A stretch of 43,051 nucleotides of DNA from Escherichia phage ECO104 4-5-2. The translations under genes were made by a program, and so were the position numbers. Location of the stretch: the sequence record OR844702. One strand, written 5' to 3'. Positions 39,398 to 40,051 of the stretch are shown in pieces (position 1 is the stretch's first letter; the number at the start of each line of letters is the position of its first letter). The notes under the pieces were generated by a model. That model was not told the origin of the DNA. It was given only the letters and a program-made list of their open reading frames with translations, and did no database searches.

Positions 39398-39643
39398 GTG
39401 CTTATGACTACTTTTAAAATCTGGTTCTTCGGTGCATTGGCAGGTACTGTGCTTATGCTCTCTTGTAAGGACGCTCAGGCCGTGCCTAACAGCATTGAGC
39501 TGTGCAACTGGGGTAAGTGGGCTTACGCTCAGAACATCGATCTCAAGGACCTTGTGGACGCCTTAAACAGCGTTGAGGCTATGCCTTACGATGATAAGCT
39601 GATTGTTGTGCAATGCTTTGTTGAATCTATGGAGACTATGTAA
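39398..39643 (+). CDS. Small secreted/periplasmic protein (81 aa) with N-terminal signal peptide
   Basis: Hydrophobic N-terminus with an AQA cleavage-like site (FFGALAGTVLMLSCKDAQA|V). Confidence 0.45.
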   Translation: MLMTTFKIWFFGALAGTVLMLSCKDAQAVPNSIELCNWGKWAYAQNIDLKDLVDALNSVEAMPYDDKLIVVQCFVESMETM

Positions 39644-39834
39644 TGATTACTGCAACTTGCGTTAAATCTAATGAACACTTCACCCTGTTTAATGAGTATG
39701 AATTTACCCTCTCAGCTGACCTGTGCTACATCGAGGCAGATTCAGGGTATACATGGACCTTCCGTGATGAAGGTGACGGTTATTACGGTTGCACCGACAT
39801 TAATGGTAAGCACGTATCTTTCTTGGTTGAGTGA
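39643..39834 (+). CDS. Small acidic protein (63 aa)
   Basis: Asp/Glu-rich; shares a GYTWTF / GWYTWTL-type motif with the next ORF. Confidence 0.4.
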   Translation: MITATCVKSNEHFTLFNEYEFTLSADLCYIEADSGYTWTFRDEGDGYYGCTDINGKHVSFLVE

Positions 39835-39847
39835 TTGGAGATTAATT

Positions 39848-40051
39848 ATGTTCTTAGAATGCTACGAGACTACTGAATTCTGGGCCTTAACTGTTGGCGA
39901 CCTATACCATGTTAAGAAGGATGGAGATGAGAGCCGTACCTACATCCTTGATGATAATGGTACTGAGCTGGATATTGAGCATGAGGGCTGGTATACATGG
40001 ACTCTAGCGGCTGACGCTAACGTCTTATTTGAAGAGGAAGAGGGAGAGTAA
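39848..40051 (+). CDS. Small highly acidic protein (67 aa)
   Basis: ATG 39848 after SD ggag; poly-Glu C-terminus FEEEEGE. The ORF-track version 39671..40051 is an upstream extension. Confidence 0.4.
   Translation: MFLECYETTEFWALTVGDLYHVKKDGDESRTYILDDNGTELDIEHEGWYTWTLAADANVLFEEEEGE

Follow-up and report, generated by a model that had tools for sequence, protein, structure and literature searches.

Two adjacent acidic early proteins of Escherichia phage ECO104 4-5-2 predicted to share the rare small beta-barrel fold of Gp54 from phage Bas11

The early region of Escherichia phage ECO104 4-5-2 (sequence record OR844702; 43,051 nucleotides (nt), the whole of which we call the window) contains two small adjacent open reading frames (ORFs), referred to here as A and B, which code for acidic proteins. 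What kind of protein do they encode, are the two related to each other, and what might they do for the phage? A reading made from the letters of the DNA alone (the sequence-only reading) had described ORFs of 63 and 67 amino acids (aa) at this locus, and both are present exactly as described:

39643..39834, + strand: ORF A, 63 aa, member of phrog_3249, predicted six-stranded beta-barrel, net charge -8
39848..40051, + strand: ORF B, 67 aa, hyper-acidic (net charge -16) with a conserved acidic C-terminal tail, same predicted barrel

The new result of our analysis is that A and B are both predicted to adopt the rare fold of Gp54 from phage Bas11. With moderate confidence, we propose that they are two diverged copies of a stand-alone Gp54-type six-stranded barrel, that they belong to a mobile superfamily whose members replace one another at hot spots, and that they act as protein-binding modules.

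Fold and charge of A and B

A and B are real genes, as both have conserved homologues. The whole of A aligns with the phrog_3249 profile (residues 1-63 to positions 1-65 of its 65, E = 3.8e-24), and the homologues of A, which are 35-77% identical and come from several phage groups, comprise 17 close relatives found in a first search and about a dozen further small ones (61-80 aa) among 1.84 billion representative proteins. For B, 11 relatives were found. The B relatives P0021, P0027, P0028 and P0029 are truncated or internally deleted (33-49 aa), with residues 1-24 of P0028 being fused straight to the acidic tail, and these shortened forms suggest frequent gene decay or deletion in natural populations, or assembly errors. 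Each of the two ATG codons is preceded by a GGAG Shine-Dalgarno sequence 8-10 nt upstream; the gene before A ends in a stop codon that overlaps the A start (ATGTAATG), the gap between A and B measures 13 nt and that between B and the next gene 2 nt. Searches of Pfam, NCBIfam and the sequences of PDB chains with A and B returned nothing meaningful, the peptide strings of A and B do not occur in the supplements of the accessory-gene screen by Silas et al., and hidden Markov model (HMM) searches of all 395 stop-to-stop ORFs in the window found no further paralogue of either protein.

The sequence-only reading had called both proteins strongly acidic. This holds for B, which contains 19 acidic (D+E) and three basic (K+R) residues, has an isoelectric point (pI) of 4.05 and ends in EEEEGE, but A, with 11 acidic and three basic residues and a pI of 4.30, is only moderately acidic. 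The acidity is kept inside each family, with net charges of -2 to -11 in the A family and -12 to -17 in the B family. The other families of the same fold are less acidic, as relatives of Gp54 carry net charges of 0 to -5 and relatives of phrog_14152 of +1 to -2.

Structures were predicted with AlphaFold2 on the family alignments and no templates. The model of A is all-beta, with a predicted local distance difference test (pLDDT) score of 94.6 and strands at residues 2-8, 18-24, 27-31, 37-44, 47-51 and 57-62. The model of B has its strands at residues 12-15, 18-25, 30-34, 40-47, 50-53 and 60-64, a pattern that equals that of A from the second strand on, offset by a three-residue insertion in B. 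Both models show a six-stranded small beta-barrel with a prominent beta1-beta2 loop, which is the topology of Gp54 (PDB 9AXB), and each of them picked the same single chain, one of rare topology, among 48,164 PDB chains. The five-stranded barrel with RT and n-Src loops and a 3-10 helix that defines an SH3 domain was found in neither. The 9AXB entry was released in November 2024. As this is later than the training of AlphaFold2, the models of A and B are independent of 9AXB. In a Foldseek search of viral predicted structures, the model of B matched small proteins of T1-like phages with template modelling (TM) scores of 0.6-0.7, and among these matches is a W011D protein of 73 aa, as long as the Gp54 homologue of that phage.

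Relationship of A and B to each other and to other small barrels

At the level of profiles, A and B can be aligned with hhalign over about 50 columns in one consistent register (P = 0.0017-0.0079), with a score that was also attained by 5 of 400 column-shuffled controls. This register fits the predicted strands, pairing C6 with C5, F13 with W12, the DxG hairpins with each other and GYYGC with GWYTW. Both families are also linked to phrog_14152-like proteins, B with P = 1.9e-4 (z = 6.6) and A with P = 3.7e-3, in each case with none of the 400 shuffles reaching the score, and cross-hits among PHROG profiles agree with these links. The comparison with the Gp54 family gave P = 0.042 for A and P = 0.061 for B, scores that were reached by 19 and 20 of the 400 shuffles, respectively. 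Local matches to Gp54 fall where the register predicts, with SGLTW of Gp54 opposite SGYTW in A and WSLAGD opposite WTLAAD in B. PHROG scans of A and B did not return phrog_7421, the family of Gp54, nor did the PDB sequence search return 9AXB. On our reading, these proteins form a loose superfamily, in which A, B and phrog_14152 are joined by sequence and A, B and Gp54 by predicted fold.

The sequence-only reading had based its suggestion of tandem paralogues on a motif common to A and B. The motif itself is real: A contains SGYTWTF and B contains GWYTWTL, with YTWT being exact in both, and the underlying DNA is identical over 13 nt:

39746..39758, + strand: first copy of the 13-nt sequence GGTATACATGGAC, encoding G-Y-T-W-T of A in the beta3-beta4 turn and beta4, part of the Asp-box-like hairpin ADSGYTW
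39990..40002, + strand: second copy of the same 13-nt sequence, encoding W-Y-T-W-T of B in the beta4-beta5 turn and beta5

The argument drawn from it does not hold. When the sequences of A and B were shuffled, an exact 4-mer in common was seen in 8.2% of the trials. Within the A family, the motif reads GQ-MWTF or GD-VWVL, so that the Trp alone is nearly invariant, and most B relatives have GYGRWAL at this position. According to the profile alignment and the predicted secondary structure, the two copies are located on non-equivalent strands, namely at residues 36-40 on beta4 in A and at residues 49-53 on beta5 in B. As the motif is at chance level, unconserved in both families and on non-equivalent strands, it is uninformative on the relatedness of the two proteins. 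We also considered the 13-nt repeat as a functional site and rejected it. It is present in just two copies in the window, both within coding sequence, and this is the sole close pair of 13-mers that was observed, with about 0.2 such pairs expected by chance in 43 kb according to our own estimate. We treat the identity as a coincidence.

Several points weigh against the proposal that A and B are diverged copies of a protein-binding barrel. BLASTP did not align A with B, and the HMMER cross-hits between them were not significant. The model of B has low confidence (pLDDT 60.6, and below 50 for residues 1-10), and the sequence similarity of A and B to the Gp54 family is just marginal. In other phages, A and B are mostly found apart, which means that they need not act together. 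The A, B and phrog_14152 families contain no functionally characterised member. Convergence of A and B on a small barrel is also still conceivable. The first three of these observations, the separate occurrence of A and B and the chance-level motif are all in line with the idea that A and B are unrelated early neighbours, and that their motif and common predicted fold arose by coincidence or because the predictor favours small barrels. We regard this idea as quite unlikely, as it would require that two independent template-free models chose the same chain of rare topology by accident, that the hhalign register happened to coincide with the predicted strand boundaries, and that both families linked to phrog_14152 above all 400 shuffles without being related. 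We consider it likely that A and B share ancestry and are tandem paralogues, with strong support from the fold and weak support from the sequences. Since both are predicted to fold as a Gp54-type barrel, they are probably diverged copies of a mobile accessory module that binds a host protein.

The distribution of the families is that of mobile, dispensable accessory genes and is confined to enterobacterial phages. The A-B pair is also present in a related 43-kb podophage contig (L002); in the same slot, A stands alone in the related podophages L019 and L020, and Escherichia phage vB_EcoP_P64441 (P64441) carries neither gene. Members of the A family are found in Rtp-like siphophages (rtp57), in the lambdoid phages mEp013, mEp021 and mEp044 and in rV5-like myophages, where the gene lies between nrdD and nrdG. 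In mEp021, it is a moron, standing alone with its own terminator among the tail genes. The B family is found in Kagunavirus siphophages, in a slot flanked by a DUF551 gene and, downstream, a conserved gene ('...SILFIWVLSAGQMQL...'). This slot holds either a B-family or a Gp54-family gene: L003 (1135-2664) has a B-family gene and a 176-aa gene, and L012 BUCT825 (1-967) a 56-aa gene and a Gp54-family gene. The Kagunavirus slot is thus an accessory-gene hot spot that exchanges families of the same fold. A second kind of tandem occurs in T1-like phages, in which a Gp54 homologue (phrog_7421) is followed by an overlapping or abutting phrog_14152 gene:

W011D (L007), 386-813: Gp54 homologue and phrog_14152 gene in tandem
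PHB17 (L008), 401-813: Gp54 homologue and phrog_14152 gene in tandem
Stevie (L014), 395-846: Gp54 homologue and phrog_14152 gene in tandem
YSP2 (L016), 386-843: Gp54 homologue and phrog_14152 gene in tandem

As the phrog_14152 gene resembles A and B, tandem pairs of small barrels recur outside ECO104 4-5-2.

Some database labels on A-family homologues would make A and B minor virion or capsid proteins. The records of rV5 gp111 and phiJLA23 read 'putative minor capsid protein', and B has a weak match (E = 1e-3) to phrog_14592, a 'virion structural protein'. However, the rV5 label rests on a noted similarity to a hypothetical Rtp protein and has no experimental basis, the rV5 gene sits between nrdD and nrdG, as described above, and A and B are encoded in the early region of the window, far from the structural genes at 15-31 kb. 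A virion role is most improbable.

The early region around A and B

The window represents a podophage of about 43 kb, which encodes a single-subunit RNA polymerase (11772-14351; phrog_414, E = 3.5e-260), a DnaB-like helicase, a DNA polymerase, a head-tail adaptor or connector (phrog_449), tail proteins, internal virion proteins and a terminase. Its closest annotated relative is P64441 (Autographivirales, Autoscriptoviridae, Slopekvirinae). The early region consists of small + strand genes, occupies the window from 37.6 kb onwards and contains sigma70-like promoters, with A and B being located between those at 39060-39088 and 40860-40888. The earlier assignment of A and B to the early genes of a T7-like phage is broadly right, as the genome belongs to the T7 order (Autographivirales), has a single-subunit RNA polymerase gene and carries A and B in its host-transcribed early region. 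The immediate neighbourhood of A and B contains the following elements:

39060..39088, + strand: sigma70-like promoter, TTGACT-17-TATAGT, 10/12 match
39398..39643, + strand: 81-aa protein with an N-terminal signal peptide (...LMLSCKDAQA/VPNS), phrog_19819 match, stop codon overlapping the start of A
40054..40809, + strand: Rha / anti-repressor (Ant)-like DNA-binding protein (PF09669, E = 8e-12; phrog_63, E = 6e-46), directly 3' of B

We infer that the promoter at 39060..39088 probably drives an early unit made up of a hydrophobic 33-aa peptide, the 81-aa protein, A, B and the Rha/Ant-like gene. The signal peptide marks the 81-aa protein as a predicted secreted or periplasmic early protein.

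This arrangement raises the question of whether A and B form a local module with the upstream 81-aa protein, the Rha/Ant-like regulator or both, serving for instance superinfection exclusion or the control of a prophage repressor, instead of inhibiting host proteins independently. The genes lie close together, with translational coupling at the A start, spacers of 2-13 nt and apparently one promoter, and the 81-aa gene directly precedes A in the window as well as in L002 and L020, and in L019 a DUF551 gene separates the two. The 81-aa gene is also present in P64441, which lacks both A and B. However, in L002 the A-B pair is followed by another small gene in place of Rha/Ant, and the Rha/Ant gene is present in P64441. 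In addition, the A-family genes of Rtp, mEp021 and rV5 are found in quite different contexts without these neighbours, and B occurs alone in Kagunavirus. In our estimate, a module of this kind has a slim chance of being correct.

A number of further observations concern the early region and the record. An exact direct repeat of 36 nt (AAATAGTTGTTGACTTCCCTGATTTAAGTAGTTATA), which holds a sigma70-like -35 element, the spacer and the start of the -10 element, is located at 38734-38769 and 39051-39086, and its copies bracket a 78-aa gene at 38814-39050 (phrog_9227). The promoter at 39060..39088 belongs to the second copy. It looks like an early promoter duplicated around a gene cassette, and is possibly a recombination scar left by insertion of the cassette. 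Downstream of the Rha/Ant-like gene, there is a conserved early promoter (TTGAC-N17-TATAGT, 40860-40888), and behind it a partly conserved untranslated leader of about 200 nt that ends in a hairpin. The promoter and leader are common to four related podophages (window, 40810-41128; L002, 1420-1720; L019, 2196-2436; L020, 2199-2430), and two listed ORFs (40820-40945 and 40857-41054) are unlikely to be genes. An Rfam scan of the early region, including the leader, returned no credible RNA family. The termini of the window (1-77 and 42975-43051) are identical over exactly 77 nt, which is probably an assembler k-mer overlap in a circularised or permuted contig; the real genome probably ends in the non-coding G-rich stretch at 37050-37600. 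Lastly, two GenBank fragments that are 100% identical to the early region, OR848645.1 and OR847174.1, are labelled 'Listeria phage LM 4-14-1' and 'LM 4-11-1', respectively. The same submission series holds E. coli and Salmonella phage records, and its host labels look unreliable, possibly owing to cross-contamination.

Possible function and comparison with known systems

Gp54 of Bas11 is the sole characterised structural relative of A and B, and all that is known of its activity is that it triggers CapRelSJ46 directly (PMC11578894). The toxin is turned on when Gp54 attaches to the pseudo-zinc-finger antitoxin domain of CapRelSJ46, and the beta1-beta2 loop of Gp54 refolds on binding into a strand that extends a hybrid sheet (beta-strand augmentation). 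Gp54 is non-essential, and close homologues, one of them with just three substitutions, fail to activate CapRelSJ46; the authors of that study suggested that Gp54 may inhibit another defence system. As activation is lost even in close homologues of Gp54, it is not transferable to A or B.

Based on our analysis, A and B are most likely small early protein-binding modules aimed at a host or defence protein, and an anti-defence role is a reasonable guess. A and B are neighbours in a variable slot among the early genes of a Slopekvirinae-like podophage and represent two families of a domain superfamily made up of phrog_3249 (A), the B family, phrog_14152 and phrog_7421 (Gp54). Members of this superfamily move horizontally among unrelated enterobacterial phages and swap at accessory-gene hot spots. 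In the mechanism that we propose, both proteins would be made early from a host-RNA-polymerase promoter and might dock on a host or defence protein via the conserved beta1-beta2 loop and the aromatic hairpins, as Gp54 does on CapRelSJ46. Many conserved positions of the A family fall within the beta1-beta2 loop and the GDGYYGC hairpin, and its beta2-beta3 hairpin is hypervariable. K8, N10, F13, T14 and L15 of the loop are invariant among the close relatives of A, and F13 alone stays so when divergent members are added. In B, the conserved poly-acidic tail could fit onto a basic surface with which the target binds nucleic acid.

The charge of B also invites a different explanation, raised by the sequence-only reading, in which B, and perhaps A, imitates the DNA backbone with its carboxylates. 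It would thereby block enzymes that bind DNA, be they type I restriction enzymes or others that serve defence or repair, in the manner of Ocr, ArdA and T7 gp5.9. The density of negative charge of B is high and within the range of known DNA mimics, that of A is moderate, and the B family keeps both its strongly negative net charge and the acidic tail. The B gene is also early and lies in a variable accessory slot. However, this acidity is absent from the other families of the same fold, namely Gp54 and the phrog_14152 relatives, and neither A nor B proved to be related, in sequence or in fold, to known DNA mimics of the Ocr or ArdA type. Beyond acidity, nothing in this analysis favours DNA mimicry, which is in that sense unsupported, and we hold it to be unlikely. 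A more elaborate version of the barrel proposal, to which we assign a rather low chance, is that the Gp54-type barrel serves as a widespread and modular effector scaffold of coliphages: A and B would be specialised forms that neutralise different host defences or factors, B would be a new type of nucleic-acid mimic, all-beta in structure, by virtue of its barrel and tail, and the proteins would in addition be sensed by CapRel-like or other sensors.

Taken together, the proposal that A and B are mobile, protein-binding barrels places Gp54 in a new setting. Gp54 had been an orphan with a rare fold, known just through its sensing by CapRelSJ46. At least two further families at the PHROG level, phrog_3249 and the B family, are now predicted to have the same barrel, and a third, phrog_14152, is tied to them by sequence. 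These barrel families occur in tandem, hop among enterobacterial podo-, sipho- and myophages and swap at hot spots, so that Gp54 would be one example of a wide class of small, mobile effectors. A, B and their relatives, including the hyper-acidic variant, are concrete candidates for screens for triggers and inhibitors of defence systems.

How do A and B compare with systems that are already known? The hairpin between beta3 and beta4 of A (xxDSGYTW) resembles the Asp-box (BNR) hairpin S-x-D-x-G-x-T-W. In A, however, it is one hairpin in a small barrel and not a repeat of a beta-propeller, and the motif is partly kept in the A family (SDTGQMW) but degenerate in B, in which the equivalent residues are DDNGTEL. 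The likeness explains spurious HMMER hits of A to sortilin, BNR and other repeat proteins, and the long repetitive proteins (invasin/Ig, BNR and others) that were matched by the A profile were dismissed as compositional or Asp-box hairpin matches. B resembles Ocr (T7 gp0.3) and other acidic DNA mimics in being small, early, non-essential and very acidic, and in having its gene near the left end of a T7-order genome. By sequence, the closest families to A and B are the phrog_14152 proteins (W011D gp40, the product of the gene after the PHB17 Gp54 homologue, Stevie gp55 and YSP2_06). Like A and B, they have an N-terminal Cys (CIKAEN...), an aromatic-T/F motif (W.FTEGKEY) and an (I/V)xDDNG hairpin (IIDDNGLEL), and their genes form tandem pairs with another barrel gene, that of the Gp54 homologue, but they are near-neutral. 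Gp54 itself (Escherichia phage Bas11 JohannLBurckhardt; complex with CapRelSJ46, PDB 9ERV) differs from A and B in being mildly acidic (net charge -3) and in coming from a T1-like siphophage instead of a T7-order podophage. With its 66 aa, it is nevertheless similar to them in size, it is likewise encoded among small non-essential accessory genes of coliphages and in the same variable Kagunavirus slot as the B family, and its hairpin motifs resemble those of A and B.
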